Below, in pieces: positions 3,205-37,798 of a stretch of DNA of 64,000 bases. The notes below the pieces were generated by a model. That model worked only from the letters and a program-made list of their open reading frames with translations. It did no database searches and had not been told where the DNA came from. This stretch comes from Candidatus Enterousia sp. (GTDB lineage: Bacteria; Pseudomonadota; Alphaproteobacteria; Rs-D84). Within the stretch, counting starts at the first letter, position 1. Every line of letters starts with the position of its first letter. The position numbers and the translations under genes are program-made. The DNA lies in contig JAZRMF010000001.1 in assembly GCA_045647355.1 (NCBI GenBank), positions 350,679 to 414,678 of the forward strand, read 5' to 3'.

Positions 3205-6132
3205 TTACAGTTTTATTTCACGCGTTTCAATTACAGGTTCTGCATATGACGTGCAATATATACCATGGAAGTTTTCTTTGGTTGTGGTGCTCTGGCTGTA
3301 CCCTATGCCAGATACAGATGTATTACCACTTACAGATCCTCCTGTCAAACCAACATCACCGTCGCCATACGCACAAGCAGTTGCAATACCAGCGCCCGAG
3401 CATTTTTCGGTATCTGTGGTAATAATTGTATCTATGTCGGAACACAGTAAAGATGTTGTTGTGACAGTACAAATGTTTGTTGTGGGACTGTATGTTGATG
3501 TCATAGAAATTGATGCCACCATATTCCCATCACCATCGGTTTGAATAAATTCGCCTTTGCCTTTGGACATTGTTTGCAATTTCTTGGTAAGGTCTGCGGA
3601 TTGTAAAACATACTGGGTGCCATTATTCCTTATCCCTGTATCGCCACTGGTGTCATTAAATATAGATTCCAATCCCTTGGTCCCCCATTCCGTACAAATA
3701 TTCGTTTTCTTTTGGGTAAGCGTGCTGGTGACAGTTACTGATTTTGTGCACACTTTCTCACCGCTGTAACTCATCGCGGCACAAAGCGCAGATTTAATAT
3801 CATCGCTTTGGTCTTCCAGGGCGTTACCGACCAATTCATCATATTTTGCCCGATAATTCAAATATGCCTTCTTTAACCCAGAACTAAACAGCATTTTTGA
3901 ATAGGAATCTAACAGATTCGGGAACCGTGCCATTTTGTCTTGTGATTTGTCCTGTTTGCCGGTACGGCTGTAACGCCAATCACCACTGCGGCCGTTAATA
4001 CACATATCAATTGTTGGGTCGGTTTGCAATGTATCCATCTTTTGCGATATACTGTTTTCAACTGTTTGTATGGCTGCTTTGATACGGGTCAATGTGGACT
4101 CGTCTGTTTCATTCCATGCATCTTTGTTGTTAAATTTAAACTGACTCTTGTCTAAACTATATGCGACTTTGCCATCTTTCGTTGTTTCTTTACTTTTCAG
4201 CAATCCGAAATTCATCAAACCATCGATAATTATTTGATCGCCTTTTTTGTATGTAACCAATGAATCTGTACCCATAACGGTATCTTCATCAAACGCATCA
4301 CAATCAGACAAACTGCCGCAGACTTCTAATACCTTGGATTGTACGGCCTTTTGACATGATGACAACAGGTTGTTATCTATCCCCAAGAATATACCTTGGG
4401 CGATACGTGCCAATTCATCATATATTTCTTCGTCGGTTTTAACCTTGGCACTTTTATTTGTACGTGCGGAACCATCAGAACCATCGTCATCATATTGGCA
4501 ACCGACTAACTTTTCTGCCGGACATAAACGAACGATGGTATCTGTATCCAAACCAATACATTGTGTGTAGTCCGCACCGCAACGATCTTCGGATTGCAAA
4601 CATTCTTTGAACTCTTTGGTACATGCATCAACACGCATAGATGCCAAACGTGCACGTACATAGTCCATAATCTTGGGTTCTGCGGCTTCGCACGGATCAA
4701 TTTCTACTTTACAGAACGAACGCAAGGTTTCCGGACGTGTCAAACACATGTCATATGAACCGTCGGGATTATTCGGGTCCATATTTTCTTTACATGCCTT
4801 TTGGAAACAGTCGGAAATCGTTGAAATACAAGAAGTACGCAAATTAGATTCCGCCGCCAATTCCGCAGATTTTACCTGCGGGGCAACTTCGCGCAGAAAT
4901 GTATCCCAAACCTGGTTTTTAACATTGACACATTGTTGCGTGACGGTCATACACAATGGCTTTTTCGATTCCAATGCATCGTATGTCCATGCGGCAATTT
5001 CAATGCTGGTTGATGCACCCTTGATTTTTTTCATTTTCATTTTGCCGCCTTGCAATGTTTCACGTGTTGTTTGTTGTGTTACGCAACCTGTAAAGTCATC
5101 GCCGCATCCGCCGGTTGTTTGCATGCACTTTTTAAATTCAATTGTACATTGTCCCAAATCGTATTTATTCGCGTTACGATATTGTTCTAATGCCGCTTCG
5201 CGCATTGCGCTTTGCGCAGCCGCCAATTTTTGTGCGCTTTGTGTGCGTTGTTGGCGCAGGCTGTTTTCATATGCGCTGCAATCGGAACGGATGCGTTGTT
5301 GATACATCAATTCCATCATTTTATTTTGGTTGCTGCATTCGGGGATTTGCGCGGTGCAAAGTTTTACAGATGCACGATACAGTGCGTCGCCTTTTTTATT
5401 TGCAACTGACACACCATCCGCGGAAAGCGAGAATATATCTTCGACTTCTTCTTCAAAACCGGAATCGCTGTCATTGTTCCATGTAGACAGGTCCAATGCT
5501 CTGCGTTTTGATTTTTCTTTGTCGGCGTCTTTTTCAATACTGGACGTGATTGATTTCGTCTTGGCCATAACGGCGTCGGCATCGTCACCCATTTCAATAC
5601 GTTCAACACCAACCGTTGCCATTTGATATGATTGATTATCCAAGTCTTGGATTTCGGCAAGAATCGAATCGTATTCGGCATTTTTATCACTGCAGATACA
5701 ACGGCCGCCGGTCGCATTATCCAACATGCAAAATGAATCCATGCATCCGCTGAATTTATTCCAACATTCTTCATCGACAACGGTGTTTTGTGTCGCGGTT
5801 GCGACCTTGGTTCCTGAATTAATAACGTTTTGTTTTGTTCCAGCACGTGCTTTGACGGTTGATGTTGTCGGTGTTGTTGCACTGCGTCCACGTGAAACGG
5901 TTGTTTTAGTATTATTGGTTGTGGCGGCGGTTGGTGTTGTTGCGCTGCGGCCGCGTACAGCGGTTGTTTTTGCGGCACGTGCACCAACTATCCCGGCGGA
6001 ATTTCCAGATGTTGAACCCACAGATTGTGATGTGGAACCTGTTGAACCCCGCGCGTTTCCGCGTGATGGCGTTGCTCCATATGCATCAAATCCGCCAATT
6101 AGAAATGCCAATATCAATAATATATTTTTCAA
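3205..6132 (-). CDS. giant Cys-rich secreted protein, family A (motif C.D.FC.LD…GGRC.CS; C-terminal RSFCKV.IDPCE…RVDACT…)
   Basis: TTG start with a GGGGG RBS and signal peptide MKNILLILAFLIGGFDAYGA. Ser/Thr/Arg-rich repeat RGRSATTPT x2. Shares N-terminal and C-terminal Cys motifs with the 54028, 57590 and 59768 proteins. Confidence 0.8.
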   Translation of the reverse strand: MKNILLILAFLIGGFDAYGATPSRGNARGSTGSTSQSVGSTSGNSAGIVGARAAKTTAVRGRSATTPTAATTNNTKTTVSRGRSATTPTTSTVKARAGTKQNVINSGTKVATATQNTVVDEECWNKFSGCMDSFCMLDNATGGRCICSDKNAEYDSILAEIQDLDNQSYQMATVGVERIEMGDDADAVMAKTKSITSSIEKDADKEKSKRRALDLSTWNNDSDSGFEEEVEDIFSLSADGVSVANKKGDALYRASVKLCTAQIPECSNQNKMMELMYQQRIRSDCSAYENSLRQQRTQSAQKLAAAQSAMREAALEQYRNANKYDLGQCTIEFKKCMQTTGGCGDDFTGCVTQQTTRETLQGGKMKMKKIKGASTSIEIAAWTYDALESKKPLCMTVTQQCVNVKNQVWDTFLREVAPQVKSAELAAESNLRTSCISTISDCFQKACKENMDPNNPDGSYDMCLTRPETLRSFCKVEIDPCEAAEPKIMDYVRARLASMRVDACTKEFKECLQSEDRCGADYTQCIGLDTDTIVRLCPAEKLVGCQYDDDGSDGSARTNKSAKVKTDEEIYDELARIAQGIFLGIDNNLLSSCQKAVQSKVLEVCGSLSDCDAFDEDTVMGTDSLVTYKKGDQIIIDGLMNFGLLKSKETTKDGKVAYSLDKSQFKFNNKDAWNETDESTLTRIKAAIQTVENSISQKMDTLQTDPTIDMCINGRSGDWRYSRTGKQDKSQDKMARFPNLLDSYSKMLFSSGLKKAYLNYRAKYDELVGNALEDQSDDIKSALCAAMSYSGEKVCTKSVTVTSTLTQKKTNICTEWGTKGLESIFNDTSGDTGIRNNGTQYVLQSADLTKKLQTMSKGKGEFIQTDGDGNMVASISMTSTYSPTTNICTVTTTSLLCSDIDTIITTDTEKCSGAGIATACAYGDGDVGLTGGSVSGNTSVSGIGYSQSTTTKENFHGIYCTSYAEPVIETREIKL

Positions 6133-6317: not shown

Positions 6318-8693
6318 TTAACGATCATCAGGATGATTTGGATCGACCTGGTCTACCTCTGTGCAGGTTGAGGTATCCAAATACAATTTTGCCTTCTGAT
6401 AGTTTACTTTGCATTTATGGCTTTGTTGGTTATATTGGCACGCGGTTGAAACTTGCATTGATCTCGGTGTGTATATAACCTTGGCAACATTGCATTCTGC
6501 CGGATTCACCAGTGCCGCGCAAGCATCTCGCCATTCATCACATGTCTTGACATTTGGTGTTTGTGACGGGGTTGGCGGTACGTCAGGATTGGTCATGCAT
6601 TCGCCATTTGCCTGGGCCACAGGTATGTTTGCGATACACGCACTGCCCGATACCATGCAGGCATTTTTAACCAATGTTGTACTTGCCAAATTGCCCGGAC
6701 GATAATTGAACTGTGCCGCACGACATTCGTCCAAATCGGTGTACAACGCGCATGTTAAACCCCAATTCTCACAATTTGTTACAACCGCGGTTGGTGCAAC
6801 GTTTTCCGGCAAATTCAATGCCCATTTGACATAGAAGTCACGCAGACGGTCAATGGTGTATGATTTACCAAATCCAACCTTGGACAGGCCATCGGCCACG
6901 CGGCAGTTAATATTGTTGCGTTCAACAAATGCCGTAATTGCTGTCGCTGTACCACCGGCCGCTGCACCAATACCGGCGCCGACCAATGTGGTTTTCAGAC
7001 GATTCGATTCTTGGCCGTTAAGTATTTCCAGTGATGCAAACACCTTTGTTAATGTTGCCAATTCTGCCTGGAAGTCTGCACGGCTGATACATTCGTTGTT
7101 GTGACCTTTGCAATATACACCTGTGCCATCACGACGCGCCAAATTCAACGCACGGAATGTGCAGTATTCAAGAGCGTCTTGGATTTGTGAGGCATATTGT
7201 TGTGCCAATTCACGGAATGGTGCCTGGACCGCGGCCACAATCTGGTCAACCTGGGCATCGGACAGACACGCGCCGCCAGATGAACATTGTGAACGGATAC
7301 TTCTGCTGATAATATCAATGTCGAATTCAGCATTGATTTCAACAATAACCTGATTCTTGCTTTCACAAGTTTTAACGGCATCTTTACCCATTTGCCACAA
7401 ATCATACAGGTCGATGATTTCGTTACACTGTGCCTGGGTCAGGGTTTTGTCGTTCGTTGAAATCTGGGTTTCAAGGAACTGATTAAGTATACCCGTTTTT
7501 TGGTTGTCTTGAATCTGCTTTAACAATTCGTCACGCATAGATTTTATCGAACAATCAAATTTGCGGTCACCATGTCCGGCCAATGCACCGATACCGGCAC
7601 CGACCAGTGTACCACCACCAATACCAACCACAGCGGCGGTTTTGGTCTTGTTCATAAGTGAAAATCCAAACAAATCTTTGTTGCATGTGAATGTTGAGCC
7701 CGCGGCTTGCCATACTTCGGCCGGATCATCGTTTCCAACGATACCAAACAACCAACTGTTTCTAATTGGTGTTTCTTTGTTATAGGCCGCAACACGCAAC
7801 AAGCACTCTGCTTTTTCCGCGTCCCAACGTGCATAGTATCCACGTTTGCCGTCAATGCCGAAATGATTCACTTGCGCGCCAAGTGGATTTGCTTTGTACA
7901 TCGAATCGTTGTGTGCGCTGTTGTATGCGCCGACTGTGTGCAAGTATTCAGAACTTGTACGGTCAGTGGTGGAAACCGCATCAAACGATGCACCGTATGT
8001 ATTGCGGTCAAGCAACAAACACGTGTTTTCGGCCTGGGTCGGTGTCAAACCAGTTTGTGCAAGAACAAATCGATAGTATTCTGGCTGAACCTTGCGGGCG
8101 TTAAAGTCAAGCCATACATCAGATGCAGATGCATAGACATAATGGCAGTCTTTGCGGACGGTTGATATACATTTTTCAACCTGGGTTAGGCAAAGGCTCA
8201 TACCGTTTATGATAGATTCACGTAAATCTTGGTTAAACAATGAATTTATCCCGTTCGGTAACGCACCACCGTTCACGCATGAAAGAATTTCGTCCATACA
8301 GTTGTCGACGGTATATGCAGAATTTCTGACACCCCCATCTGGACATTCCACTGGGGTATCGGGGTCTGGTTCTGGCCCTGGCGGTGGAGGTGGCGGTGGT
8401 GTTGGCCCCGGCCCCGGCTCAGGTTCCGGTTCTGGTTCTGGGGTCTGGTTGTGATTAGTATTCGTGCTGGTTGACTTATTTCCCAATGCACTTATTGGTA
8501 ATACAGGAATAGATGGCATGCGGCCACTGCTGGCGGCGCTACGACCATGAGTTTGTTGCGTTGTTGCCGTCGCACGACCATTGCTGACGGCGGCATTACC
8601 ACGCGGACTGTCGGCACCAAAACACGCACCTGTCATCGCGATAACAGACAAGCAAATTACACTTTTTCCCAATGTTTTCAGCAGTTTTTGCAT
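6318..8693 (-). CDS. giant Cys-rich secreted protein, family B, with (PE)n/(PG)n/poly-Pro linker and two glycine-zipper segments
   Basis: Strong RBS AAGGAGGG and signal peptide MQKLLKTLGKSVICLSVIAMTGA. Linker PEPEPEPEPGPGPTPPPPPPPGPEPDPD. GAGIGALAG and GAGIGAAAG segments. Confidence 0.8.
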   Translation of the reverse strand: MQKLLKTLGKSVICLSVIAMTGACFGADSPRGNAAVSNGRATATTQQTHGRSAASSGRMPSIPVLPISALGNKSTSTNTNHNQTPEPEPEPEPGPGPTPPPPPPPGPEPDPDTPVECPDGGVRNSAYTVDNCMDEILSCVNGGALPNGINSLFNQDLRESIINGMSLCLTQVEKCISTVRKDCHYVYASASDVWLDFNARKVQPEYYRFVLAQTGLTPTQAENTCLLLDRNTYGASFDAVSTTDRTSSEYLHTVGAYNSAHNDSMYKANPLGAQVNHFGIDGKRGYYARWDAEKAECLLRVAAYNKETPIRNSWLFGIVGNDDPAEVWQAAGSTFTCNKDLFGFSLMNKTKTAAVVGIGGGTLVGAGIGALAGHGDRKFDCSIKSMRDELLKQIQDNQKTGILNQFLETQISTNDKTLTQAQCNEIIDLYDLWQMGKDAVKTCESKNQVIVEINAEFDIDIISRSIRSQCSSGGACLSDAQVDQIVAAVQAPFRELAQQYASQIQDALEYCTFRALNLARRDGTGVYCKGHNNECISRADFQAELATLTKVFASLEILNGQESNRLKTTLVGAGIGAAAGGTATAITAFVERNNINCRVADGLSKVGFGKSYTIDRLRDFYVKWALNLPENVAPTAVVTNCENWGLTCALYTDLDECRAAQFNYRPGNLASTTLVKNACMVSGSACIANIPVAQANGECMTNPDVPPTPSQTPNVKTCDEWRDACAALVNPAECNVAKVIYTPRSMQVSTACQYNQQSHKCKVNYQKAKLYLDTSTCTEVDQVDPNHPDDR

Positions 8694-8799
8694 GAAAAAC
8701 CCTCCTTTTCTATCCCTAGTAGTATATCATAAAAAAGGGCTATAAAAAAGTCTTTTTATAAAAAAATCTGAAAAAATGGTAATTATTTTTGGCTTATGG

Positions 8800-8827
8800 T
8801 TGACAGATAATAAAAAATGTCTATAAT
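8800..8827 (+). promoter_or_regulatory. consensus sigma70 promoter TTGACA-16-TATAAT upstream of 8853 gene
   Basis: Perfect -35 TTGACA (8800-8805) and -10 TATAAT (8822-8827) with a 16-nt spacer. Confidence 0.5.
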
Positions 8828-8852
8828 ATTTAGTGATTAATGGTTAGAAAAC

Positions 8853-9902
8853 GTGGCATGCATAAAGGATTTTTTCAAAAAATGGCGGCTCGCGATTGCG
8901 TGGACGGTTGGCTATGCAGTGGTTATGTGGGCCATTTTGCGTGGATTGTTTAGCTTTAATATGTTGCGCTTAGACCATTGGGAAAAGTTATCACATGTTG
9001 AATTACATGGATTCCCAGGTTTTGTATTTGCGATTTTGCTTTTGGCGGCGATACCGCTTTATATTGCCACAGTCATGTTAACGGTTCGCAAGAACGAAGT
9101 TCCAGTAAAGATTCCTGTGCCGAAATGCTTTGTTAAACCACCCAAGGCTGAACCGGCACCACCCAAGCCGATTGTTACACCTGGTGAAGTCCTGGAAGAT
9201 TTACCAGCCGGTGTTCCCGCCGAAATGCGTGAAATATTTGTGCGCGCGCACAAGAACAAAAGCGTACGCCAGATGTCGGTATTTAATCGTCCGTCTAAAT
9301 TTGATGACAGCCCAGTTGCAACCACTGTCAAGGCGGAACCTGCGCCCGCCCCAATGATGACACCGTCGCCGGCCCCGGTGGCACTAGCACCAACGGTGCA
9401 AACACCGCATCCCGTAGAACCTGTTTCGGATGAGGAATCTGATTTCCCAATACCAACCGATTTTGATATACCTGTCAAAAAAGATTACGATGTGCCCGTA
9501 TTTTCGGATATCAAATTTGATGATGATGACGAAGAAGATGAAGAGAAATCAGAAAAAGCAGAATACGCAAACGTGAAAGACATCATATCTGGGGCAGGGC
9601 ACAAGCCGGAAATTGTTGGTAATTTGATTGTGGTGAATGATTGTGCGATTGCAGTTCATGCGGATGATGATTTCTGGGTCGCAGATGAATTGGATTGGTT
9701 CGCATCGGGTCGTCAAAAACCATCGCCAATTGCAGAATTAAATAAAATTGTCACAGAGAAGGGATTGAAACCAATATTATACCTGGGGCAGACCAATATT
9801 ATGAATTTTGATAAAGTATCTGAACAATGGCGCGCAGAAGGTGTACAAATTGTTACCAGTGTAGACGAACTGTTAAAATTGATTCAGACCGACCCAAAGT
9901 AA
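8853..9902 (+). CDS. hypothetical membrane protein (2 N-terminal TM helices, Pro-rich linker, acidic region)
   Basis: GTG start (an in-frame downstream ATG is possible). TM segments AIAWTVGYAVVMWAIL and FVFAILLLAAIPLYIATVML. Pro/Ala-rich region and a DDDDEEDEEK run. Confidence 0.55.
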   Translation: MACIKDFFKKWRLAIAWTVGYAVVMWAILRGLFSFNMLRLDHWEKLSHVELHGFPGFVFAILLLAAIPLYIATVMLTVRKNEVPVKIPVPKCFVKPPKAEPAPPKPIVTPGEVLEDLPAGVPAEMREIFVRAHKNKSVRQMSVFNRPSKFDDSPVATTVKAEPAPAPMMTPSPAPVALAPTVQTPHPVEPVSDEESDFPIPTDFDIPVKKDYDVPVFSDIKFDDDDEEDEEKSEKAEYANVKDIISGAGHKPEIVGNLIVVNDCAIAVHADDDFWVADELDWFASGRQKPSPIAELNKIVTEKGLKPILYLGQTNIMNFDKVSEQWRAEGVQIVTSVDELLKLIQTDPK

Positions 9903-9969
9903 TTTACTGATGCATTGACTTATTTGGTGTCGCGGATATCACAGGATTTATCCTACTTTGCCAATGGGG

Positions 9970-10425
9970 CTATTTCCATGTTGTGGATGTATATTCACAA
10001 TAATATTCAACTTTGCCTTCGGCATTTTTATTGAATTTTGGCCATGCCTTAGTAATTTTAATTTTGCCACTGCCAAACTGTAACGGTTTGTTCAGTTTGG
10101 TTAAATTTGTACATGCTTCTCGCAGTGCTGGTTTACATGCGGCTTGACACGATGCATCAGGTAGTATTTGCCGGCTGCGGTAAATTTTTTCTGGGGTTAA
10201 ATCTAAACCGTCGCAGACAGTTTTGCATTGTGGATTTCGTGCCAGTGCATTTTCGTCTGATTCATCGTCTTGGTCGTCACTGTTTGGTCTGTTGCGTGGG
10301 GTGCTGCTGGTGGACTTAACCGTTTTGATGTCGCATTTATATTGTGTATCATCACCAACGTGTTTTATTGTTAATGTTACATCGGTTGAGTTGGTTTTAA
10401 AACTACCGCACTTTTGTTCTATCAT
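9970..10425 (-). CDS. Cys-rich segment lacking its own signal peptide; in-frame continuation of the upstream 10658..13273 gene after a -1 shift at an A10 tract
   Basis: The same frame is open with no stop from 10657 down to 9970 (…NNDVNPTPANNTPGDATERRTPTNPNPQ…CDTICKNL…MIEQKCGS…). No RBS or signal peptide of its own. Confidence 0.45.
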   Translation of the reverse strand: MIEQKCGSFKTNSTDVTLTIKHVGDDTQYKCDIKTVKSTSSTPRNRPNSDDQDDESDENALARNPQCKTVCDGLDLTPEKIYRSRQILPDASCQAACKPALREACTNLTKLNKPLQFGSGKIKITKAWPKFNKNAEGKVEYYCEYTSTTWK

Positions 10426-10657
10426 TGATCTGCACTTGCCTTGGCATGATTTCTGTGCAGCAGGTAATACTTGTAGTGGATTAGTTTGGGATATTGCGTT
10501 GGCAAGGTTCTTGCATATGGTATCGCATTGATTTGCACTGCCGCCGGAATTTTGTGGTGCGGGGGTGCCGGTGGCATTCTGTGGATTAGGATTGGTGGGG
10601 GTGCGACGTTCGGTTGCATCACCTGGGGTATTATTCGCTGGTGTCGGATTTACATCG

Positions 10658-13273
10658 TTATTTTTTTTTTGAACTGTTTACAACAGGGCCATCTTCGGTT
10701 TTAATCCGGTATGGGGTGATCTTGCTAACACTATATCGTTTCCCGTCGGGGTCTGTATAAGAAATCTTGCAGTTTGCGTTTGCAGAAACTGTAATAGCAG
10801 GGCTTGAAGAACTTTCAAGTGTCTTTGAATCGCATTCGACTTTTGTCATTGTTGCGTTCTTGACCTTGCTTAATATATCCGACCATTTAAGTGTAATGTT
10901 CGAACATGTCAGGTTTATTGGGGTGTTAGCTTTCTGCATATTGTCCAATTCTGCGACAGTCTTCTTATATGGACCACAATAATCTGCTTTGACGGTGCAA
11001 TTAATTGATGCGGGAACATCATAAATGAGAACTTTGTCAGAATATGTATATGGGCTTTTCTTCCCTGCATTATTATCACAGGTTATATTCAAATTTTTCA
11101 GGTTTATGTTCGATGGGCCTTTGACACCCAAATTAAGCTTGATAAGTGCATCACCGCCGGTACATTCGTTGTTTTCCCATTTCCCGAATTTTGCAAGACA
11201 GTCGTCGACCTTTCTACATACCATTGTTACAGATTGCATCGCAGAAAATTCTTTTGCGGTTTTTTTCATAGGACTACACGTTGGGGCGCTTGTCGCTATT
11301 GTACATTCCGCATTTCCTGGAATCTTTTTTAATGATAAAACGCCTTCTTTGGTTGTTTTGGCCTCTTTGTTTTTATTGTTATACTTACATCTTAAATATC
11401 CTTGTACCGGGGTGTTGGCACTGGTCAGTGCCTTTAAATTAATATTTACCTGTGCGGTTTCATCCTGGGGATTTGATTCGCGTGCGCGACGCTCGTCACC
11501 ACTTGGTTCTTCAGTTGGTTTGTCTTGACACTTGTCGTCTTTCCATTCGCATTTATCAAGTTTGTCGCAACCGTCTTTATTGTTATTATACATTTCGCAT
11601 TTTAGCGCACCTAAAACGGTGTTATCTAGTTGCGCAGTTTGGAATGAATATCTTCCATCACCTGTTTTATAATCGCAATAGAAATTTCCATTGTTGAATA
11701 TAAGTTGTGGATTGGTAATAGTTTTCCCTTCTCCAAGATCTTTGCCTTCTAACATTGTACATAAAGTGCCTATTTCTTCGGTACACTTTGCGCGACAACT
11801 TGGTTCACTTAATGGTTCTTGATGTAAATTATCACCTGATTCAAGTGCAGAATTGAGATTTTCAACAATTGTTTTACATATTGGTTCGCAATCAACAGGT
11901 GGTTCCTCTGCCTCTTTGCATGTATCAGTACTTACGTCGTATGTCTTTGTTGAATCAATACATTCTTGTGTGCACGTGCCATTGCTATACACGCGGCCGG
12001 CATTTGTACATTTTTGTTCGGCGTTCTCTTGACCGCCTTCATCGGTTTGATTTTGGTTTTGTGTACATTGACCATCTTCCCATGTGCCACCGGCATTTGT
12101 ACATGCTTTTTCTGGATCTATGTCCGTACATTCACCCTTTTTCCATGTGCCACCAGAATTTTCACATTCTTGTTTTGCGGCTTTTTCGGCCTTTTGTGTT
12201 TCTAGTGCGCGTCCAATTGCACCCGAAGATAGCAAGCCTGCGGCCGTACCAACACCAGCGCCCAACATTGCAGATGATGCCGCCGTTTGTGAACGTGTCA
12301 AACGATATGCGTTTTCTTTGAACGTTGTAACATCTATGCCAAACCAATTTGCATTGCATTGGAAACTGTCCCCGGCATAGAGTTTTTTCGATGCGGTCGG
12401 GGTACTGGTATTATCGCCGGCAAAGAAATTCACAGTATATACGCAATCCAACGTGCGTTCGTCAAACATTGCACCCAAACGATTGCACTGTGTGCGCATC
12501 AAATCACGCAATTCATACAAACGTTTTTCGTCTTTTTCTGCCTGGGCCTGGGCGATGGTTCGCAAATCGCCAAATACGGTCATAATGCGCGATGCCATGC
12601 CACTGTCTTGTTCTTTACATTCCTTGGCAATGGTTCCACATTTCGATATTGCGCGGTCGCCATCAGATTTAGATAAGCATTTTTCTAATGTCGTTCCGCA
12701 TTCTGCAAATACGCACGCGTTGTATCTGTTGCCGCATGAAATCACAGAATTATAATATGTCATGCGTTCATTAAAGTCACGATCAGCCAATATTTCTGGG
12801 GCAAGTAATGAATATTCGTGACCACTGCATTCTGTTTTGCGACGGCAAGAATCCATTTTTTCACCCCAAATGGTGGTGCTGTCTTTTGAACATTTTGTAA
12901 AATCAGCCCCGCATTTTTCGGCCATACATTTACGCAAGTTCGCATCGCATGCGTTTGCGCCTGTGACACCCGAAGATGATTTTCCGCCGTCGGATGGCGC
13001 TTTTCCTTTGTTGTCTAATAAGGCACGTTGACGGCGCACGCGGTCCGCTAAATCGGAACTGGTTGTGTCAGCGGTTTTTGCACCCAGGTCGGAAAATACT
13101 TCGTTAAATTGAGATGTTTTATTATCAACAACAACCGTTTTCGTAGAAGATGTTGTCGATTTAGTTTTTGATTTTGTCGTTTTTGTGGCGGCATATGAAT
13201 CAGCGGTGTACAGTGCACATGCGGCGATTGCCACAACAAAAATCTTTGATAAAATGTTACGTGTCTTTCTCAT
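10658..13273 (-). CDS. giant Cys-rich secreted protein, family B (glycine-zipper, Cys-rich EGF-like C-terminal region, ends SSKKK)
   Basis: Preferred start is MRKTRNILSKIFVVAIAACALYTADSYA at 13273, which overlaps the upstream stop as TAATG. The ORF track gives 13291. Segment SAMLGAGVGTAAGLL. Confidence 0.8.
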   Translation of the reverse strand: MRKTRNILSKIFVVAIAACALYTADSYAATKTTKSKTKSTTSSTKTVVVDNKTSQFNEVFSDLGAKTADTTSSDLADRVRRQRALLDNKGKAPSDGGKSSSGVTGANACDANLRKCMAEKCGADFTKCSKDSTTIWGEKMDSCRRKTECSGHEYSLLAPEILADRDFNERMTYYNSVISCGNRYNACVFAECGTTLEKCLSKSDGDRAISKCGTIAKECKEQDSGMASRIMTVFGDLRTIAQAQAEKDEKRLYELRDLMRTQCNRLGAMFDERTLDCVYTVNFFAGDNTSTPTASKKLYAGDSFQCNANWFGIDVTTFKENAYRLTRSQTAASSAMLGAGVGTAAGLLSSGAIGRALETQKAEKAAKQECENSGGTWKKGECTDIDPEKACTNAGGTWEDGQCTQNQNQTDEGGQENAEQKCTNAGRVYSNGTCTQECIDSTKTYDVSTDTCKEAEEPPVDCEPICKTIVENLNSALESGDNLHQEPLSEPSCRAKCTEEIGTLCTMLEGKDLGEGKTITNPQLIFNNGNFYCDYKTGDGRYSFQTAQLDNTVLGALKCEMYNNNKDGCDKLDKCEWKDDKCQDKPTEEPSGDERRARESNPQDETAQVNINLKALTSANTPVQGYLRCKYNNKNKEAKTTKEGVLSLKKIPGNAECTIATSAPTCSPMKKTAKEFSAMQSVTMVCRKVDDCLAKFGKWENNECTGGDALIKLNLGVKGPSNINLKNLNITCDNNAGKKSPYTYSDKVLIYDVPASINCTVKADYCGPYKKTVAELDNMQKANTPINLTCSNITLKWSDILSKVKNATMTKVECDSKTLESSSSPAITVSANANCKISYTDPDGKRYSVSKITPYRIKTEDGPVVNSSKKK
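10661..10670 (-). repeat. homopolymeric A10 tract (T10 on + strand) at the 3' end of the 877-aa gene, directly before its stop
   Basis: Ten consecutive T on the + strand at 10661-10670. A 1-nt contraction puts the upstream CDS in frame with ORF 9970..10657. Confidence 0.9.
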
Positions 13274-14136
13274 TACTTTAATACCGTACATGCATTTTCA
13301 TAGAATTTGCATAATTGTTTTGCCATTGATTTTTCTTTTGCGTCTTTGCATTTGCCGCGCATGTTATTTGTACAAACATTTTCTATGCAACCGTCCGCGG
13401 CGGTTCCCTTGGTGCAAGCTGTTTTGATGCTTTCAAGTTTAGTTTTGCGTGTTTTTTGATAATTTTCCGCAATCGTTTTAACCAAGGTTTCGCGGTTGTT
13501 TAGCGCGTTTGTTCGGGCGGATGCCGCGGTCTTTTTGAAATCGGCAATGTATTCGTCGCATCCACTGGCCTCGGCACCACATTCGGCGACAATGCGGTCG
13601 AAATCCGCATCTTTTTCGCATGAATCAAACGCGGTTCCGCACTTTTTATCCATACATTCTGTAAAGGTAGTGTTGCAACTGTTTTTCGTTTTTTTGGTAT
13701 TAAGTTTTGTTGCCGCATTTTGAATTTGCATCGTGACACCCGCGGCCTTGCATGATTGTTCAATTAATTTGTCGTATGCGGCGGATGCATCGTCTGGTGT
13801 GCAATCCGGTAATTTTTTGATACATTCCGTGGTTGCCCAAATATAGCGCTTGCCCGGATCAGATGGTGCAGATTTTAAATCTTTTTCGCTAATTGCATAT
13901 TTTGTTGATTGACCTGCGGTAATATTGTTCAATCCCTTTTGCGATGGGGGTTCGCCGGCACCAGATGTTCCGCAATATTGACAACGCGCCGACGGATTCA
14001 TGCTGGCGTTAATTGCACACGCAGAATCAAGACACCGTGTAAGATTTGTTTTTGAACATTTGCTTACTGCGGCATAACCGCCAAACGCAGTGAATCCGCC
14101 AAATACACCAACAAAGAGCAGGATAAAATGCTTCAT
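13273..14136 (-). CDS. Cys-rich secreted protein (287 aa), first gene of an operon with 10658..13273
   Basis: Signal peptide MKHFILLFVGVFGGFTAFGG. 24 Cys. Translationally coupled to the downstream gene. Confidence 0.75.
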   Translation of the reverse strand: MKHFILLFVGVFGGFTAFGGYAAVSKCSKTNLTRCLDSACAINASMNPSARCQYCGTSGAGEPPSQKGLNNITAGQSTKYAISEKDLKSAPSDPGKRYIWATTECIKKLPDCTPDDASAAYDKLIEQSCKAAGVTMQIQNAATKLNTKKTKNSCNTTFTECMDKKCGTAFDSCEKDADFDRIVAECGAEASGCDEYIADFKKTAASARTNALNNRETLVKTIAENYQKTRKTKLESIKTACTKGTAADGCIENVCTNNMRGKCKDAKEKSMAKQLCKFYENACTVLK

Positions 14137-14262
14137 CTCCCCAATCCAGTGTATTGATTATATCAAAAAAACAACCCCGTTGCAAAATATTTTTATTTAC
14201 CTATTGACAACGTAAAAGTTTTGTCTATAATATATATGAAATCAAACCAAAGGAGTTTGGAA

Positions 14263-14931
14263 ATGGAAAAATTGAGAAACTTATTTGTTCGCGGGGCGGT
14301 ATTTGGTACTATCGTTGTAATGGTATCGTCATGTGGACCAAAAGAAGAAAGCTTGATGCCGGGTATGAAGGCATATGGAGAAAATCCAACATTTACGTTA
14401 TGGATGAGTTCAGTTGACGATTCGCATGCAGCTGCAGATACAGCGGATTTCACTGATCATGTGATAGATTCTGTTCCAACGCAACAAAATGACACTGTCC
14501 CATGTGATTGTGACACAGTGGTGGAACCGAAAAAACCATGTGATTGTGATACAGTAGCAGAACAGAGATGTTGCCCAACTATAAACAACAATAACGGCAT
14601 CTTGATTATCGGTAATAACAATACGGTTAACCAAAATCAGACCACGGTAACAACAAATGGTAATAATAATCAAACGACAGTGAACAGCACTGCGGGTGGC
14701 AATACGTCTATTAATAATATTAATACGCGTAGGAATACGGATCGGACTCAACAAACAGTTGTATGCCGTCAAAATCGACAGACAAACCCATGTCCATGTG
14801 AAACTGTTGAATCTCATACACACATACACGTTAGTGTACGTGGCAGCGCGACAGTGACACAACAACCTGCGCAACAGCAACCACAAAGTAATACAACATA
14901 TTACTATTACAGCAACAGCTATAGCAAATAA
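14263..14931 (+). CDS. lipoprotein with Asn/Gln/Thr-rich low-complexity region and repeated PCDCDTV motif
   Basis: Lipobox VMVSSC after MEKLRNLFVRGAVFGTIV (the ORF track start 14221 is an alternative). Repeats PCDCDTVVEP and PCDCDTVAEQ. N/Q/T-rich NNNNGILIIGNNNTVNQNQTT…. Confidence 0.55.
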   Translation: MEKLRNLFVRGAVFGTIVVMVSSCGPKEESLMPGMKAYGENPTFTLWMSSVDDSHAAADTADFTDHVIDSVPTQQNDTVPCDCDTVVEPKKPCDCDTVAEQRCCPTINNNNGILIIGNNNTVNQNQTTVTTNGNNNQTTVNSTAGGNTSINNINTRRNTDRTQQTVVCRQNRQTNPCPCETVESHTHIHVSVRGSATVTQQPAQQQPQSNTTYYYYSNSYSK

Positions 14932-14946
14932 TCAAAAGGGAACGCG

Positions 14947-15273
14947 ATGAAAAATAAAGTAATTGCTTCTTTGAAAGGTTTGACTTTGTTCTCGTTGTTG
15001 TTTGCCGGTGTGGCGACCGCAAATGCGCAAGAACCGGCGCAACCAAAGCGTGTTGTGGATACAACCTTTGTGAGTGCAATGCGTAATCCAGACAATTGGA
15101 AACTGTATAAAGTAGAGCAGGCGGTACAAATTAAATTTGGCCCAAAACCGAAAAACCCGCCTATCTATAAAAGAGACGAAGATGGTTGGATAGAAATTCC
15201 TGCTGATAGTATTCATCCAGCAATTCCGTCACCAATTGTTAATAAAGCGAAAGAGATTTCACAAGGAAAGTAA
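14947..15273 (+). CDS. small secreted protein (108 aa)
   Basis: RBS AAAGGGAA and signal peptide MKNKVIASLKGLTLFSLLFAGVATANA. Confidence 0.55.
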   Translation: MKNKVIASLKGLTLFSLLFAGVATANAQEPAQPKRVVDTTFVSAMRNPDNWKLYKVEQAVQIKFGPKPKNPPIYKRDEDGWIEIPADSIHPAIPSPIVNKAKEISQGK

Positions 15274-15383: not shown

Positions 15384-18300
15384 ATGAAGTTTGTTAGACT
15401 TTTGGTTTTTGCTTTATTCTTTGCGCCGTTTGGTGCATTTGCGGCACCAAATGATTTTACGGTTGCAGCGCAGTTGTTGGCCGCGGCAAAAAATGCCGAT
15501 ATTCAACAGGTTCAGATTTTGGTTAATAATGGCGCAAATATAAACTATGTCGATAGTACAGGGTTATCATTGGTTTGTACGGCATTGATGAATAACGATT
15601 TGCGTGCGGCGCAAATTCTGCAAATGTATGGTGCAGATGCATCACAATGCGACCGACAAATTAAGAATTACAAGACACAAAATTCGCCCGGGCGAACGGG
15701 TGGGCTATTCGGTGGACTATCCACCGCCCAGGGATTAACATTGGCGGCGGCGGGTGCCGCCGTTGTTGTAGGTGGACTTTATTTATTAACGGATGTATTT
15801 GATCATGATAATCATAACCATACATCGTCATCCAGTGATGGTAATCACGGTGGGGGCTCTGGCGGCGGCGGTGGTGGTTCTTCGAATAGTGGTACCGTAT
15901 GGTCTGCGGGTGCATTGCCATATGGGCCGGCGATGTTAAATGCAACCCAAGAAACCGCAAATTACACAAATAATTTGGCATTGTATTACACGCAATATGA
16001 TGCCGATAATGAAGAAACGGTTTATTACAAAGATTTTAATTTGATGAACAGTTACGCAGGGAATAATTCCCAGAATTATTTGTTGTTAATGCGTGGCTAT
16101 TCGCCGTTGGCGCGTGGATATTTGGGAATGCGTACATTACGTGATACATCAACAAATACACCACTTGCCTTGTATAATGCCCAGGGGGATTCATTATACA
16201 ATCTTGGAACAAATGAACATGTTATGGGCGGGCGTCCGGTTAATGTTGCGTTAATTACGGCAAATGGTGTTAATGCCGTAGATGGGTCTTCGTTGCAGGA
16301 TAAATTTGTGTTGTGGACACAACATTCTGGACCCACCAGTTTAGTGGCGGCAAGTAATGACAAGATGTCCAGCAAGTATTACAACAATATGATAACATTC
16401 GGTGCAAATGAACTTTCGATTATTGATGATACATCGGTGGAAGATCCTTTGACGTTGGCAGCGTTTGATTTGTCGGGTGCGGGTACCGCAATACATAATG
16501 GTTCTGCAACCGGTGACGATAATCTGTTGGGTAAAATAGTCGGCGGAAATTTTGAAACAGGGTATAACGGCGATTTTGCGGGCTTTATGCCAAATGGTCA
16601 AATGACAATTTATCGCACAGGTGGCGGCAAGAAACTGATTGCTGCGGATAATTCAATTTCAGGCTCGTATAATTTTGCTGGCACAGAGATTGCGGTTAAC
16701 GATACGATGACATTTGATAGTGTTGGTGTAACCGCAAAGGTTGCGGCAATTGGTACGGTTGGTTTGGGCGATGCAACGAAAAGTATAGCATGGTCTTATG
16801 TCGTTGATGGGCAAACGAAATATTTTTATGGGTATTTGTTGGGTAATTTATACTATATAGATTTTGATGGCGATGGAATGCCAGATGCCGCCTATGCCAC
16901 CAGTTCTGGAGATTTAGTTTTGGTTAAACGTGTAACCAGTGAAGGTGTCGATTACTATAATTACACGGCATTGGTAAATGCGGCACTGCGTTCAACCGGG
17001 GATTTAGAAAAGGGGCGTTCGCGGGTTGATATAATTGCAAATGCGGATGTAATCGAACCACTGCACAGCCGTTCGGCATATACGGTGCGCGATATGTTGG
17101 CAAGTGATTTTGATGATTTGTATTTCGCGGCTTTTGTGGAAAGTAGTTACGGTGCAGAATCTACAGATAATGGTTTTATTCCGCGGGTCCAGGCCCAGGC
17201 GTTCTTTAATGGGTTGGGATCGTTGTATAAACCGTTAACTATTTTTTCTACGGGCGCATCCATTCAAAATACCGGGGCATTGTATGCAGATTCACTGCAA
17301 GAAGCCACGTTTGAAAATGCCGCGCCATTGGTGTTTGATAATCTGAATCATTTATTTATGTCGGTTGTTGCGGTCGGGGCCAGTACGTATGGAACAACAA
17401 CAATTGCCGCGAATTCTGATACAAACACGAACAAATATAGTTTGGCACAGTGGGCAAGTAATGTCGATGGTACAACAAACTATTATAAATCACGTATTTG
17501 TGGAATTGCGGGAACTGGAAATGCGGGTGCGATGGATCCATGGTGTTTCGCATCGGTTGGAATTACCGATGAAATGGCGGTCGCATCGGCGGCGGGTGCG
17601 GCGGGTGTGCTGCGTTCGGCATTTTATTACATGACACCCCAAGAAATATTTACACTGCTTGCGTTGACGGCGGATGGTCCATATCTTAATCGTTTGTCGG
17701 CGGGAACCCAGTTAAATCAGACATCTTTGGCGGCGCATTTACGTTCTTTGTATAATATGCCGTCCGAATATCAATACGAGATAACTGATGATGCCAGTTA
17801 TTTAGAGGTGTTTAAACGTGTGTTTGGTTATGGTGTGATAAATCTTGAACGCGCGACAACACCGGGAACAAATCTGTATTATTACACAAATGGTAAAATT
17901 GTTTCCAGTGCGGGTAATGCGTATTGGCGCGCGGCGACAAATACAAATATGCGTATGTCGCCGGCGTTGAATCTGGGACGTGGTGCAATTAACATTGCGG
18001 CGTATGATATACTGGAAAGTGTTGATGGTTCAATGCGGTTACCGCGTATTTGGGAAAGTAATGTTTCTTTTGGTAATGAATCGCGTAGCGCGCTGTATAT
18101 GGGCGATGTGTTGGGTGATTTGCATACACGTGACGTTGCCGATAATACAATGCATATTGGAAATATGTCGTTTGGTTTTGCGCGTTCGGAACGTTTGTAT
18201 AATGACAGTATGGGTGGGTTGGACAATATGCATTTGTCATACGCGCATGACAATTGGAAATTGTCTGCTGATTATCAGCGTTATTTGACGGATGGTGAAT

Positions 18301-19097
18301 CGCGTTTCTATGGAATGGCGAATCCGATTTTATCTTTGGCGTCGCGTGCAACAACCGGTGGTATAGATTACAGTTTTGGTAAATGGTCATTTGGGGCGCG
18401 CGGATTTACCGGTGCAATAACGGACGAAGGTTTATTGGAAAACGACCCAACGATTTCGTCATTGTATGAACCGATGAGTTTGGGAACGATTGCGGGTGCG
18501 CAATCTGAAATAGGGTGGAACAATGAAAAGTTCGGTTTCAAAACATCGGTTGGTTCAATGCACGAAGATAACACCATGCTGGGTGCGTATGCAACGGGGT
18601 TGTTGGAAATTGGTGGTGCCAGTACGAACTATGTCGATGTTGATACGTTTTGGAAAGTGTCAGATATGTTGAAACTGCGCGCGCGTGCGACATTTGCACA
18701 CACCACACCGAACATGGACAGTGGCGCGATTATAGACGTGTCTGGATTGAATTCTAATGCGTTTGCGTTTGGTGCGGATGTTGGAAATATTAATTTGGGT
18801 GTGTCATTACCATTGGCGGTGTTTGATGGTCACATGAGTTATGATTACGCGAACTATGAAATAGTGGATACAGATGATGGTCGTTATGATTTGGCGATAA
18901 CTGATTTCGGTACAAGACGTGTTAGCATGTCGCCGGCGCATCGCGAAGTTCGTCTGAATGCGACATATCGTCATAACTTTGGGCCGTTTACCGATGGTGC
19001 GATTGGGTTTATATACCGTATAAATCCGAACAATACCGATGAATTCGGAAATGAATCTATATTCATGATGAAAATGTCACATATGATTGGCATTTAA
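15384..19097 (+). CDS. large secreted ankyrin-repeat protein (1237 aa) with Gly-rich segment and beta-rich C-terminal region
   Basis: Signal peptide MKFVRLLVFALFFAPFGAFA. Ankyrin repeats (…LLAAAKNADIQQVQILVNNGANINYVDSTGLSLVCTALMNNDLRAAQILQMYGADA…). A GGGSGGGGGGSS run. Alternating-residue beta pattern near the C-terminus. Confidence 0.75.
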   Translation: MKFVRLLVFALFFAPFGAFAAPNDFTVAAQLLAAAKNADIQQVQILVNNGANINYVDSTGLSLVCTALMNNDLRAAQILQMYGADASQCDRQIKNYKTQNSPGRTGGLFGGLSTAQGLTLAAAGAAVVVGGLYLLTDVFDHDNHNHTSSSSDGNHGGGSGGGGGGSSNSGTVWSAGALPYGPAMLNATQETANYTNNLALYYTQYDADNEETVYYKDFNLMNSYAGNNSQNYLLLMRGYSPLARGYLGMRTLRDTSTNTPLALYNAQGDSLYNLGTNEHVMGGRPVNVALITANGVNAVDGSSLQDKFVLWTQHSGPTSLVAASNDKMSSKYYNNMITFGANELSIIDDTSVEDPLTLAAFDLSGAGTAIHNGSATGDDNLLGKIVGGNFETGYNGDFAGFMPNGQMTIYRTGGGKKLIAADNSISGSYNFAGTEIAVNDTMTFDSVGVTAKVAAIGTVGLGDATKSIAWSYVVDGQTKYFYGYLLGNLYYIDFDGDGMPDAAYATSSGDLVLVKRVTSEGVDYYNYTALVNAALRSTGDLEKGRSRVDIIANADVIEPLHSRSAYTVRDMLASDFDDLYFAAFVESSYGAESTDNGFIPRVQAQAFFNGLGSLYKPLTIFSTGASIQNTGALYADSLQEATFENAAPLVFDNLNHLFMSVVAVGASTYGTTTIAANSDTNTNKYSLAQWASNVDGTTNYYKSRICGIAGTGNAGAMDPWCFASVGITDEMAVASAAGAAGVLRSAFYYMTPQEIFTLLALTADGPYLNRLSAGTQLNQTSLAAHLRSLYNMPSEYQYEITDDASYLEVFKRVFGYGVINLERATTPGTNLYYYTNGKIVSSAGNAYWRAATNTNMRMSPALNLGRGAINIAAYDILESVDGSMRLPRIWESNVSFGNESRSALYMGDVLGDLHTRDVADNTMHIGNMSFGFARSERLYNDSMGGLDNMHLSYAHDNWKLSADYQRYLTDGESRFYGMANPILSLASRATTGGIDYSFGKWSFGARGFTGAITDEGLLENDPTISSLYEPMSLGTIAGAQSEIGWNNEKFGFKTSVGSMHEDNTMLGAYATGLLEIGGASTNYVDVDTFWKVSDMLKLRARATFAHTTPNMDSGAIIDVSGLNSNAFAFGADVGNINLGVSLPLAVFDGHMSYDYANYEIVDTDDGRYDLAITDFGTRRVSMSPAHREVRLNATYRHNFGPFTDGAIGFIYRINPNNTDEFGNESIFMMKMSHMIGI

Positions 19098-32810: not shown

Positions 32811-33104
32811 ATGAAAGTCACGATTGCGCTTGTGTTATTATCCATTTATACCGTGTTGGAATTTATCGCGTATATGCCACAAATAATAAAATTATTAAAA
32901 ACTAAATCAGCCGATGATTTAAGTTTGACATCTTGGTTCACATGGATTACCGCAGATTTGTGCTATTTGGCGTATGTGTTGTTGGAAAGTCCAGAGATTG
33001 GCGTCATATTTATTTGCTCATTGGATTTGGTTTTCTTGTTGGTGGTGTTTTTATTGACGGCATGTTATCAAAAACGTAAAAAACGCAAAAGAATTCGCCG
33101 TTAA
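32811..33104 (+). CDS. PQ-loop repeat protein, SemiSWEET-like 3-TM transporter
   Basis: 98 aa with 3 predicted TM helices. PQ motif in AYMPQIIKLLKTKSADDLS, then a basic KRKKRKRIRR tail. RBS AGAGGTG. Confidence 0.6.
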   Translation: MKVTIALVLLSIYTVLEFIAYMPQIIKLLKTKSADDLSLTSWFTWITADLCYLAYVLLESPEIGVIFICSLDLVFLLVVFLLTACYQKRKKRKRIRR

Positions 33105-34507
33105 TGTGTTTTGATATTGTGGCGTTGTAAAAATTTATTTTGATTTTCAATATATCTTTCTTGGGATAATCGACCGTTATTTGACATTTGCGGCGGTAAA
33201 CTGGCGATATAATTACCGTATGCGGTATTAAAATATTTTTTATCATAATTCTTTTCTTGTGATAATCGAATTCTATCGGCATCCCGTATAGATGCAGAAA
33301 TTAGATCTGGGGCACATATATCGGTTGAATTATGATATTTAATTGCATAAACAATCTTATCTATTGTGCCAGGGAAAAGACGCTCGCTATAATTTTTTTC
33401 TAGGAATATGCGTGCGATTTCCGCACCACGTTGTGCATGTTCTGCGTCGTCATCATAATCGCCGTCATCATGTTCTTTGGGTACGCGTGCAATATCGTGC
33501 AATGCCGCCCCTAACATAATTGGAAATGGGTCGGTTCCCATCGATATGGCGATTTCAATCGCAAATTGAACGACCTGGAACGTATGTGTGTACAGGCCAT
33601 GGTATCCGTATTTTGGTTGCGTGCCGATATTTTCAATTTTGGGTAAAATTTCGTTTATAAACAATTTGGTATAATATTCACGTGCACGAACCGCAGATTT
33701 TATGACCGATGGACGAGACCGCAGATTGTTAATGTTCGACCATATCGTCTGTTTGATATCCATTGAACATGCATGAGAAGATTCTGCTTTACGTAATAAT
33801 ATTTTTTCAAACTCGGCCATTTTGCGACAAGGAAATATTTGGTAATCCGCATGGATTTCCAATGGTTCACGTGGCGTAATTTTTTGGCCCAGATCCATGC
33901 GGGCAATATTTTCTGGGCGAAATACTATGTATGATGTGTGACCACGGTCTTCACGACGGTTGGTATAATTAAATCCGTCGTATCCCAGATGTTCAAAGTA
34001 TTGAATCATACGTTGTTGATATAGATGATATCGGTTTACTTGTTCGGGTGTGTGGCATGCATGTTGTTGTGCCGTGGTATTGTATAAATTATCTGTTTGC
34101 AATTCTTTTTTTACATCTGGTGTTGGTATATGAAATGGTTCTGTAAAAATATAATCATAAAAATAGGGAATATTGTTTAATTTTAGATCATGCACAATGT
34201 GGTATAAAACCACGCATTGAAAATAGTTGATATCTGAGGCTCCACCAAAATCATCAATTTCGTATGTGTTGATCAGATTTAATTGCACTGGAATAATTTT
34301 ATATGTTGAATCGTTTTTGAATGACGGGGGCATTTGTATGGAATATTCGTGTCTTATGTCCAATGTTTCGTCTTTTTGGCATGGACATAATAGTACACAT
34401 TCTTGGGCGGCGGGATAAGAGCCAAAATGCGATAGTGGGCGGAATTTTTCAAATTCTGCCCGGGTGCCATGATAGAAAATATTATTTTGATCCAAAAATA
34501 ATGCCAT
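33101..34507 (-). CDS. HD-domain phosphohydrolase with unknown ~300-aa N-terminal region
   Basis: HTFQVVQFAIEIAISMG…LGAALHDIARV… is the H…HD signature of the HD superfamily. The N-terminal half has no recognisable domain. Confidence 0.65.
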   Translation of the reverse strand: MALFLDQNNIFYHGTRAEFEKFRPLSHFGSYPAAQECVLLCPCQKDETLDIRHEYSIQMPPSFKNDSTYKIIPVQLNLINTYEIDDFGGASDINYFQCVVLYHIVHDLKLNNIPYFYDYIFTEPFHIPTPDVKKELQTDNLYNTTAQQHACHTPEQVNRYHLYQQRMIQYFEHLGYDGFNYTNRREDRGHTSYIVFRPENIARMDLGQKITPREPLEIHADYQIFPCRKMAEFEKILLRKAESSHACSMDIKQTIWSNINNLRSRPSVIKSAVRAREYYTKLFINEILPKIENIGTQPKYGYHGLYTHTFQVVQFAIEIAISMGTDPFPIMLGAALHDIARVPKEHDDGDYDDDAEHAQRGAEIARIFLEKNYSERLFPGTIDKIVYAIKYHNSTDICAPDLISASIRDADRIRLSQEKNYDKKYFNTAYGNYIASLPPQMSNNGRLSQERYIENQNKFLQRHNIKTH

Positions 34508-37768: not shown

Positions 37769-37798
37769 CGCAGATTTCTGCGGGTTCTGTTGTTTTTT
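37769..37798 (+). terminator. putative intrinsic terminator
   Basis: cgcag-attt-ctgcg hairpin followed by ggttctgttgttttttg. Confidence 0.35.

Follow-up and report, generated by a model that had tools for sequence, protein, structure and literature searches.

Does the run of ten adenines (A10) at the 3' end of a large Cys-rich gene of Candidatus Enterousia sp. mark the place where a longer gene was broken, the border between two genes, or a switch between two alternative C-termini of one protein? The gene lies on the minus strand of a stretch of 64,000 nucleotides (nt) of contig JAZRMF010000001.1 (positions 350,679 to 414,678), hereafter the window, and a second Cys-rich open reading frame (ORF) follows it in another frame. 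A preliminary description of the locus had taken the two ORFs for parts of one protein, and had offered a phase-variable form of a surface protein, a recent pseudogenising frameshift and a homopolymer sequencing error as possible explanations of the present state. The comparison of the locus with its relatives leads us to favor, with moderate confidence, the reading that the A10 tract is a selectively maintained poly(A) frameshift switch, placed where the body of the protein meets a C-terminal cassette that can be exchanged.

On the minus strand, the gene closes with GTA AAC AGT TCA AAA AAA AAA TAA (VNSSKKK-stop), in agreement with the T10 that had been reported on the plus strand at 10661-10670 and with the end read from it, SSKKK-TAA. 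Removal of a single A fuses the two ORFs, as had been claimed, into one open frame of 1106 codons, which runs from ATG 13291 to TAG 9972-9970, adds 230 codons to the short form, passes through the junction peptide NNDVNPTPANNTPGDATER and ends in ...EYYCEYTSTTWK; addition of a single A instead leads to KKKITM and a stop at 10652-10650. The tail reached in this way starts with an Asn/Pro/Thr-rich linker and continues with 12 Cys in two units of ~80 residues, which bears out the earlier reading of a linker followed by a Cys-rich domain. The event that joins the frames had been called a −1 slip, a term that holds insofar as one A less puts the tail in frame, but not in the sense used for recoding, where the tail sits in the +1 frame relative to the body and requires one A fewer or two more. 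Because of this +1 relation, a ribosomal −1 shift would not reach the tail. The tract is located at about codon 875 of 1106, such that a change of frame alters the C-terminus while expression is kept. The next longest run of the window has a length of 8. Dinucleotide shuffles of the window contain on average 3.1 such A10 runs, with at least one in 86 of 100 shuffles; taken alone, the A10 is within chance expectation for 64 kb, and it is the relatives that carry the argument.

We searched the fused protein as query against 5.8 billion proteins and obtained 271 homologues, all of them unnamed or annotated as "hypothetical protein" and all from metagenome-assembled genomes (MAGs) of Alphaproteobacteria, with sample names that point to ruminant gut studies. 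Both architectures are present among these homologues (P numbers). P0001 (1110 amino acids [aa], 78% identity over 100% of the fused query) is a fused protein with an A15 tract, P0004 (1099 aa, with 82% identity across 40% of the query) continues in frame through ...GCVKKKNNEVTP..., and P0010 is an in-frame fused protein of 843 aa; with these three, the view that the two ORFs make up one protein is well founded. On the other side, P0002 (872 aa, 97% identity to the fused query) and P0003 (850 aa, 76% identity over 79% of it) both end in ...GSKKK, and P0008 (890 aa), which is the same kind of gene as P0004, has the C-terminus ...GCVKKK. A KKK C-terminus occurs in 8 of the listed homologues.

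For 25 related loci (L numbers) the DNA itself was retrieved, which yielded 12 distinct junction haplotypes. A pure A-run is found at the joint in all 12 haplotypes and is interrupted in none; eight of the runs are A10, three are A11 and one is A15. At least five modules without relation to each other supply the 36 nt that precede the run, and the run itself may begin, according to lineage, in the first, second or third codon position; since the codon position differs between lineages, it is the nucleotide run that is conserved, and not a poly-Lys motif. From codon usage (AAA accounts for 73% of Lys codons and TCA for 22% of Ser codons), the chance that such a run is retained without selection is roughly 0.1 per lineage.

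All three frame states occur at this joint. Eight of the 12 haplotypes are "in frame plus one A" (ON+1), with TAA, TAG or TGA directly after the run; three are in frame, namely L003 (A15), L005-7 together with L063 (GTT+A11), and L032 (C+A10); and a single one (L030/31, P0013) is in the third frame, with A11 and a stop after MKI. An approximate tally over contigs counts 23 as in frame, 26 as ON+1 and 6 as third-frame. In all lineages, both wrong frames terminate directly after the run or 3-4 codons on (the short third-frame tails of relatives are ITQ, MSNQ and MKI, each followed by a stop), and because both stop at once, the mis-framed products are clean. The out-of-frame arrangement is the only state seen in the lineages of the window, P0043 and P0005 and is polymorphic in three other lineages. 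If all out-of-frame alleles were ON+1, a strictly programmed site would be indicated, but P0013/L030, P0145 and P0139 reveal the third frame as well.

Comparison with orthologs, which the preliminary description had proposed, thus reveals relatives that vary in tract length and that hold fused as well as split alleles, and some of these differences separate close neighbors. The P0001 lineage contains an A15 fused allele (L003) and an A10 split allele (L029), L005 (T+A11, fused) pairs with L008 (A10, split), and the in-frame P0134 (1099 aa) falls into one 90% cluster with the short P0008. Similarly, P0145, which ends in the third frame with ...QKKKKITQ-stop and a 15-nt Lys segment, shares its 90% cluster with the in-frame P0012 (QKKNN), while P0007 and P0146 (QKKK-stop, ON+1), of the lineage of P0012, make up the separate cluster 9. 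P0139 (MGRPKLRSKKNN...) implies an A9 allele. A tract whose length differs between otherwise nearly identical alleles bears the signature of a hypermutable tract.

Taken by themselves, these observations agree with pure phase variation at the DNA level, i.e., with a classical contingency locus at which slipped-strand mispairing makes cells either short or long and a leak at the RNA level is irrelevant; the phase-variable OFF or short form of a surface protein suggested earlier is indeed an alternative that fits the data. In favor of such a locus, alleles with an identity of 90% or more outside the tract show three frame states and lengths of 9 (inferred), 10, 11 and 15, in-frame alleles (L003, L005 and L032) have kept the tract as well, and a homopolymer-based "C-terminal phase variation" has been described in Helicobacter canadensis (PMC2823697). 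We nevertheless consider it rather unlikely that DNA changes account for everything, given what is seen in the window's own lineage.

Like every allele found in its lineage (~11 contigs), that of the window is a short-form allele. These short-form alleles come from ENA, Logan, JGI and NCBI (P0002, P0129, P0131, P0132, P0003 and L047), and the 5.8 billion proteins contain no in-frame allele of this lineage, which the fused query would catch at ~97% identity and full coverage. The same records bear on the suggestion that A10 is a sequencing or assembly error, such that the true tract would be A9 and the gene a plain ORF of 1106 codons. Some platforms are error-prone at homopolymers. However, identical A10 tracts with identical flanks recur across several samples, pipelines and archives, in independent MEGAHIT (ENA, k141), SPAdes-type, scaffolded, Logan and JGI assemblies, and tracts of A11 and A15 were assembled without difficulty in other lineages. 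Because the same A10 emerges from different assemblers and samples, we regard an error as excluded for all practical purposes.

Behind the tract, the cassette has been exchanged in an otherwise closely related allele. Locus L001 is 97.3% identical to the window over 15000..10547, a stretch that includes the tract and the first 114 nt of the linker; similarity is absent over 10546..9906 and returns, at 97.7% identity, over 9905..8001. The L001 tail is a different module with 10 Cys, intact behind A10. In L004, which is otherwise ~97% identical, the mid-gene segment 12079-11503 is replaced by unrelated sequence. With two segments replaced in near-identical alleles (L001 and L004), the gene is best described as a recombination mosaic. 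Three independent metagenome contigs break near the tract, L047 starting 45 nt before it and L008 and L009 ending ~55 nt after it; such breaks would be expected if co-occurring strains share the joint and differ on either side, such that the assembly graph branches. A candidate array of silent cassettes downstream of the gene in L010 was rejected, since its ORFs turned out to be fragments of a single DUF3419 gene that scaffold gaps interrupt.

The tail is preserved even where it is out of frame. In every out-of-frame allele it is open over 213-234 codons, and no stop or indel occurs in the nine out-of-frame haplotypes. We compared pairs of short-form alleles by the ratio of nonsynonymous to synonymous substitution rates (dN/dS, Nei-Gojobori method). 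For the tail, this ratio is 0.18 between the window and L004 (12 nonsynonymous vs 18 synonymous, p = 8e-6), 0.15 between the window and L047, 0.33 between the window and L029 (p = 1.6e-7), 0.28 between L010 and L012, and 0.20 between L010 and L018, values similar to the 0.18-0.43 obtained for the part of the gene upstream. In the alternative cassette, 10 of 10 Cys are invariant in 7 lineages, and synonymous sites are saturated between some of the lineages that share the out-of-frame arrangement. A recent pseudogenising frameshift of an ancestrally fused gene, with 9970..10662 as a decaying remnant, would be in line with the existence of fused relatives (P0001, P0004 and P0010) and with a window allele that, as written, encodes the short form only. 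It is contradicted by a tail dN/dS of 0.15-0.33 (p down to 1e-7) without stops or indels, by the conservation of all tail Cys, by the recurrence of the out-of-frame arrangement across lineages with saturated synonymous sites, and by the intact alternative cassette swapped in behind the same A10. This part of the preliminary description did not stand up, and we consider decay of the tail very unlikely.

Constraint on the tail could also reflect an independent small gene at 9970..10425 that starts at ATG 10425, and gene callers do report a 151-aa ORF in relatives (L004; P0121 and P0122). This ATG is the first ATG, GTG or TTG in the tail frame, yet it is located 79 codons in and inside the first six-Cys unit, has no well-placed Shine-Dalgarno (SD) sequence upstream, with a weak and badly spaced AAGG only, and does not begin a signal peptide, which agrees with the earlier remark that the downstream ORF lacks a ribosome-binding site and a signal peptide of its own. 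Many other genes of the window have a clear SD of the AAGGAG or GGGG type. No promoter-like or terminator-like site was found on the minus strand between the tract and ATG 10425, and in other lineages the first start is elsewhere, in non-homologous sequence (ORFs of 168, 214 and 186 aa). Most directly, the 79 codons that precede the ATG are open and have a dN/dS of 0.14 between the window and L004 (6 nonsynonymous vs 12 synonymous, p = 1.6e-4); because purifying selection acts on them, we infer that they are translated as part of the extension, which leaves the independent gene hardly any probability.

The simplest explanation of a tail that is constrained in a lineage seen only out of frame is that A10 alleles give rise to the long form, too. 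RNA polymerase slippage on the A10 probably leaks the other isoform, and one allele could make both because A10 is within the slippage range of RNA polymerase. In bacteria, runs of at least nine A's give rise to transcripts with extra or missing A's (PMC5009743), and since the RNA polymerases studied slip on at least 9 A (PMC5009743; PMC4256274), a complete lack of leak would be unusual. Switching at the DNA level alone therefore has to face this expectation, together with a window lineage in which ~11 contigs are all A10 and none in frame while the tail is under purifying selection, and with an excess of ON+1 over the other out-of-frame state of ~26:6 in contigs and 8:1 in haplotypes.

Under the reading that we favor, the default product would be set by the length of the tract. 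A9, A12 and A15 would give a long form of ~1100 aa with two extra six-Cys units, A10 would give a clean end at KKK-stop, and A11 an end three codons later. The other product would be reached by two routes. One of them is a slipped-strand change of tract length at the DNA level, which the comparison of near-identical alleles between strains shows; the other would be slippage of RNA polymerase, such that an A10 template would yield minority A9 or A12 transcripts, as suggested by the known behavior of runs of at least nine A's. By this second route, a short-form allele would still make some long form. The likely effect would be variable length and composition of a surface or secreted protein, accompanied by exchange of the cassette at the same joint. 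Judged from sequence comparison, the tract is conserved and length-polymorphic, and it gates a tail under constraint.

The shift could instead be made by the ribosome on a faithful messenger RNA, either by a +1 shift like that of prfB, for which AAA would occupy the P site and the stop codon the A site, or by sliding on AAA-AAA-AAA. It fits the former that a stop (TAA, TAG or TGA) directly follows the last AAA in all ON+1 alleles, and the latter that sliding on iterated AAA codons has been reported in Escherichia coli (PMC4363877). Against a ribosomal shift, no conserved stimulatory RNA hairpin or SD-like stimulator upstream of the run was found among the haplotypes: upstream flanks are unrelated between lineages, and RNA folding around the tract is not significant (z = −0.6). 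Moreover, tRNA-Lys that moves from AAA to AAU would re-pair imperfectly, the stop is followed by C, T or G without conservation, and the shift site is not fixed, as in-frame and third-frame alleles exist. A ribosomal shift as the principal cause is thus improbable; ribosome sliding on the AAA repeats may contribute.

Several points weigh against the maintained switch with an RNA-level leak. The case is built on assembled alleles, and switching within populations as well as transcript heterogeneity lie beyond such a comparison. The mix of three frame states across the family fits plain DNA phase variation, for which no leak at the RNA level is needed. The A15 and A9 lengths assigned to P0145, P0139 and P0126 were deduced from protein tails and not from DNA, exact-protein look-ups return same-frame contigs only, such that uniformity within haplotypes is partly built in, and many contigs stem from few ruminant studies. 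"Surface variation", finally, would be suggested by a protein that has a signal peptide, is rich in Cys and is built as a mosaic. Broader searches added little to the sample. The junction DNA pattern gave 10 matches over one genome per GTDB species, all of them chance matches in unrelated taxa, and 31 matches over JGI metagenomes, among which only L047 (A10) and L063 (T+A11) are true relatives; protein searches with the tail alone returned called fragments only (2 of the window type and 6 of the alternative module) and gave no unbiased census of ON and OFF states.

The coordinates of the gene, the tract and the parts of the tail are collected in Table 1. Of the two possible starts, ATG 13273 is likelier than ATG 13291, because it forms an overlapping TAATG with the stop codon of the 287-aa gene upstream, is the choice of gene callers in relatives and corresponds to an 871-aa NCBI protein (P0131) that shares the C-terminus ...VVNSSKKK. 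The preliminary description had given the gene 877 aa at 10658..13273; an 877-aa ORF does exist from 13291, but these coordinates correspond to 871 aa. The TAATG overlap suggests translational coupling with the 287-aa gene. The ORF from 13291 overlaps this upstream Cys-rich gene by 19 nt.

Table 1. Positions in the window of the short-form gene, the A10 tract and the elements of the C-terminal extension
Feature	Coordinates	Strand	Remarks
Short-form coding sequence	10658..13273	minus	871 aa from ATG 13273, 877 aa from ATG 13291; ends SSKKK-TAA
A10 slippery tract, putative frameshift switch	10661..10670	minus	T10 on the plus strand; longest homopolymer of the window
0-frame stop TAA abutting the tract	10658..10660	minus	Short form ends at KKK; read from the sequence
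Third-frame stop	10650..10652	minus	KKKITM-stop tail, used if the tract were A11; read from the sequence
C-terminal extension ORF, +1 frame	9970..10662	minus	230 codons plus TAG 9972-9970; would be read only after a shift at the tract
Asn/Pro/Thr-rich linker, predicted disordered	10528..10662	minus	First ~114 nt common to alleles with the other cassette
79 tail codons preceding the first possible start (ATG 10425)	10426..10662	minus	dN/dS 0.14
First six-Cys alpha/beta unit of the extension	10321..10539	minus	Model pLDDT (predicted local distance difference test) ~80-86; BLASTP E = 1e-6 to body unit
Second six-Cys alpha/beta unit of the extension	9973..10248	minus	Model pLDDT ~80-87; BLASTP E = 7e-5 to body unit
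Exchangeable C-terminal cassette	9906..10546	minus	Non-homologous 10-Cys module instead in the 97% identical L001/L002

From its N-terminus, the protein consists of a signal peptide, a conserved Cys-rich helical N-domain of ~300 aa, a likewise conserved Gly/Ala-rich, moderately hydrophobic segment and variable Cys-rich modules, with 46 Cys in the short form and 12 more in the tail. An AlphaFold model of the N-domain has pLDDT values of 85-90 for residues 105-310; in that of the tail, extension residues 1-40 stay below 50 and are followed by the two alpha/beta six-Cys units at ~80-87. A Foldseek comparison of the models of N-domain and tail with the PDB gave no match better than E = 0.17, and when the gene, its tail and six neighbors were scanned with Pfam and NCBIfam, ankyrin repeats in a neighbor were the only family found. 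The six-Cys unit of the tail is also present once in the protein body (BLASTP 1e-6 and 7e-5). Since a phmmer search with the tail gave one weak match in 1.84 billion representatives, the tail module is very rare.

As to the surroundings, Cys-rich ORFs without a Pfam or NCBIfam match flank the gene at 3205-6132 (975 aa), 6318-8693 (791 aa) and 13273-14136 (287 aa), all on the minus strand, and the 791-aa ORF has Gly/Ala-rich hydrophobic segments as well. The synteny of the 287-aa, ~350-aa and ~790-aa genes is kept in all related loci, and a 1237-aa ORF with N-terminal ankyrin repeats (15384-19097, plus strand) adjoins the locus in all relatives (1184-1245 aa). A DUF3419 gene (PF11899, 289-316 aa) lies directly after the tail in L005-L007, L012, L013, L018 and L032 and is absent from this place in the window, L001, L003 and L004. 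Farther away, a 1379-aa ORF (37790-41929, plus strand) combines a YadA-like membrane anchor with a Chlamydia PMP repeat, which makes it an adhesin of the trimeric-autotransporter type, and a 468-aa ORF (33101-34507, minus strand) has an HD domain and a sub-threshold match to the ADP-ribosyltransferase of polyvalent proteins (ART-PolyVal). As the window encodes a YadA-type autotransporter and a SurA-like chaperone, the host is a diderm.

Switches of this general kind are familiar. Transcriptional realignment on A or T runs, with at least 9 A and two resulting C-termini, is known from Thermus thermophilus dnaX and from the transposases of insertion sequence elements (reviewed in PMC5009743); there, the run length is fixed within a species and the products are cytoplasmic enzymes, whereas the present tract varies in length and belongs to a protein with a signal peptide. 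In Citrobacter rodentium tssM1, the domain that follows an A11 is encoded in the +1 frame, the run measures 10-15 A in transcripts, and full-length protein accounts for 20-25% of the product, while in Yersinia pseudotuberculosis tssM3 an in-frame A9 gives 15-25% short form (PMC4256274, Gueguen et al. 2014). The locus described here resembles both in that an A-run late in a large gene, which encodes an envelope protein in their case, is followed by a C-terminal domain in the +1 frame behind a premature stop, giving two lengths; moreover, the out-of-frame default in one species and the in-frame default in the other mirror the split between lineages observed here. In contrast, slippage in that system was demonstrated by mass spectrometry of complementary DNA and both forms were found to be needed, whereas our case comes from sequence comparison, and the stop lies 28 nt after the run in tssM1 but abuts it here. 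Unlike in either tssM gene, the tract varies in length between near-identical alleles, the tail can be swapped, and the host is an uncultured alphaproteobacterium.

In the C-terminal phase variation of Helicobacter canadensis (Snyder et al. 2010, PMC2823697), a homopolymer near the 3' end likewise alters the C-terminus without silencing the gene, and tract-length polymorphism is the evidence in both cases; the same has been proposed for Neisseria (PMC5320596). The tracts of these two are mostly poly-G/C, however, and most changes concern a few residues, whereas here it is a whole folded module, of 213-234 residues, that depends on a poly-A, at a joint shared by the members of a diverged family. 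As cited in PMC5009743 and PMC2831843, poly(A) frameshifts in Buchnera and Blochmannia are rescued by polymerase infidelity, such that genes out of frame at about A10 stay under selection while slippage restores part of the transcripts, as proposed here. In these endosymbionts, the situation is interpreted as one of tolerated decay in AT-rich reduced genomes with many tracts, unlike the single A10 in 64 kb found here against 3.1 expected. The depletion of long runs, together with a single tract where conserved modules meet, suggests that the tract itself has been selected for. The locus thus belongs with the C-terminal switches by homopolymers that are already known, probably with transcriptional slippage involved, and what is distinctive here is a joint conserved across a diverged family and its coupling to cassette exchange.

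One consequence concerns annotation. For the gene and at least eight of its relatives, public records list two items, a "complete" short gene and an orphan ORF of 150-235 aa, and such split records should read as one gene with a slippery joint. Comparison lends good support to poly(A) switching of the C-terminus in this protein family and in a group of bacteria without a cultured representative, and it connects the switch, whose junction is an element of 60 nt, with the exchange of cassettes. It is tempting to speculate that the joint is, beyond this, an obligate two-isoform site, with a fixed ratio of short to long form that slippage of RNA polymerase would produce from A10 and that changes in DNA length would reset, and at the same time a conserved homology anchor for the exchange of non-homologous cassettes between strains, within a surface-variation system of uncultured Alphaproteobacteria from gut and rumen, a possibility that we put forward tentatively. 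If this is true, one short sequence would control both which tail is present and the amount in which it is made.

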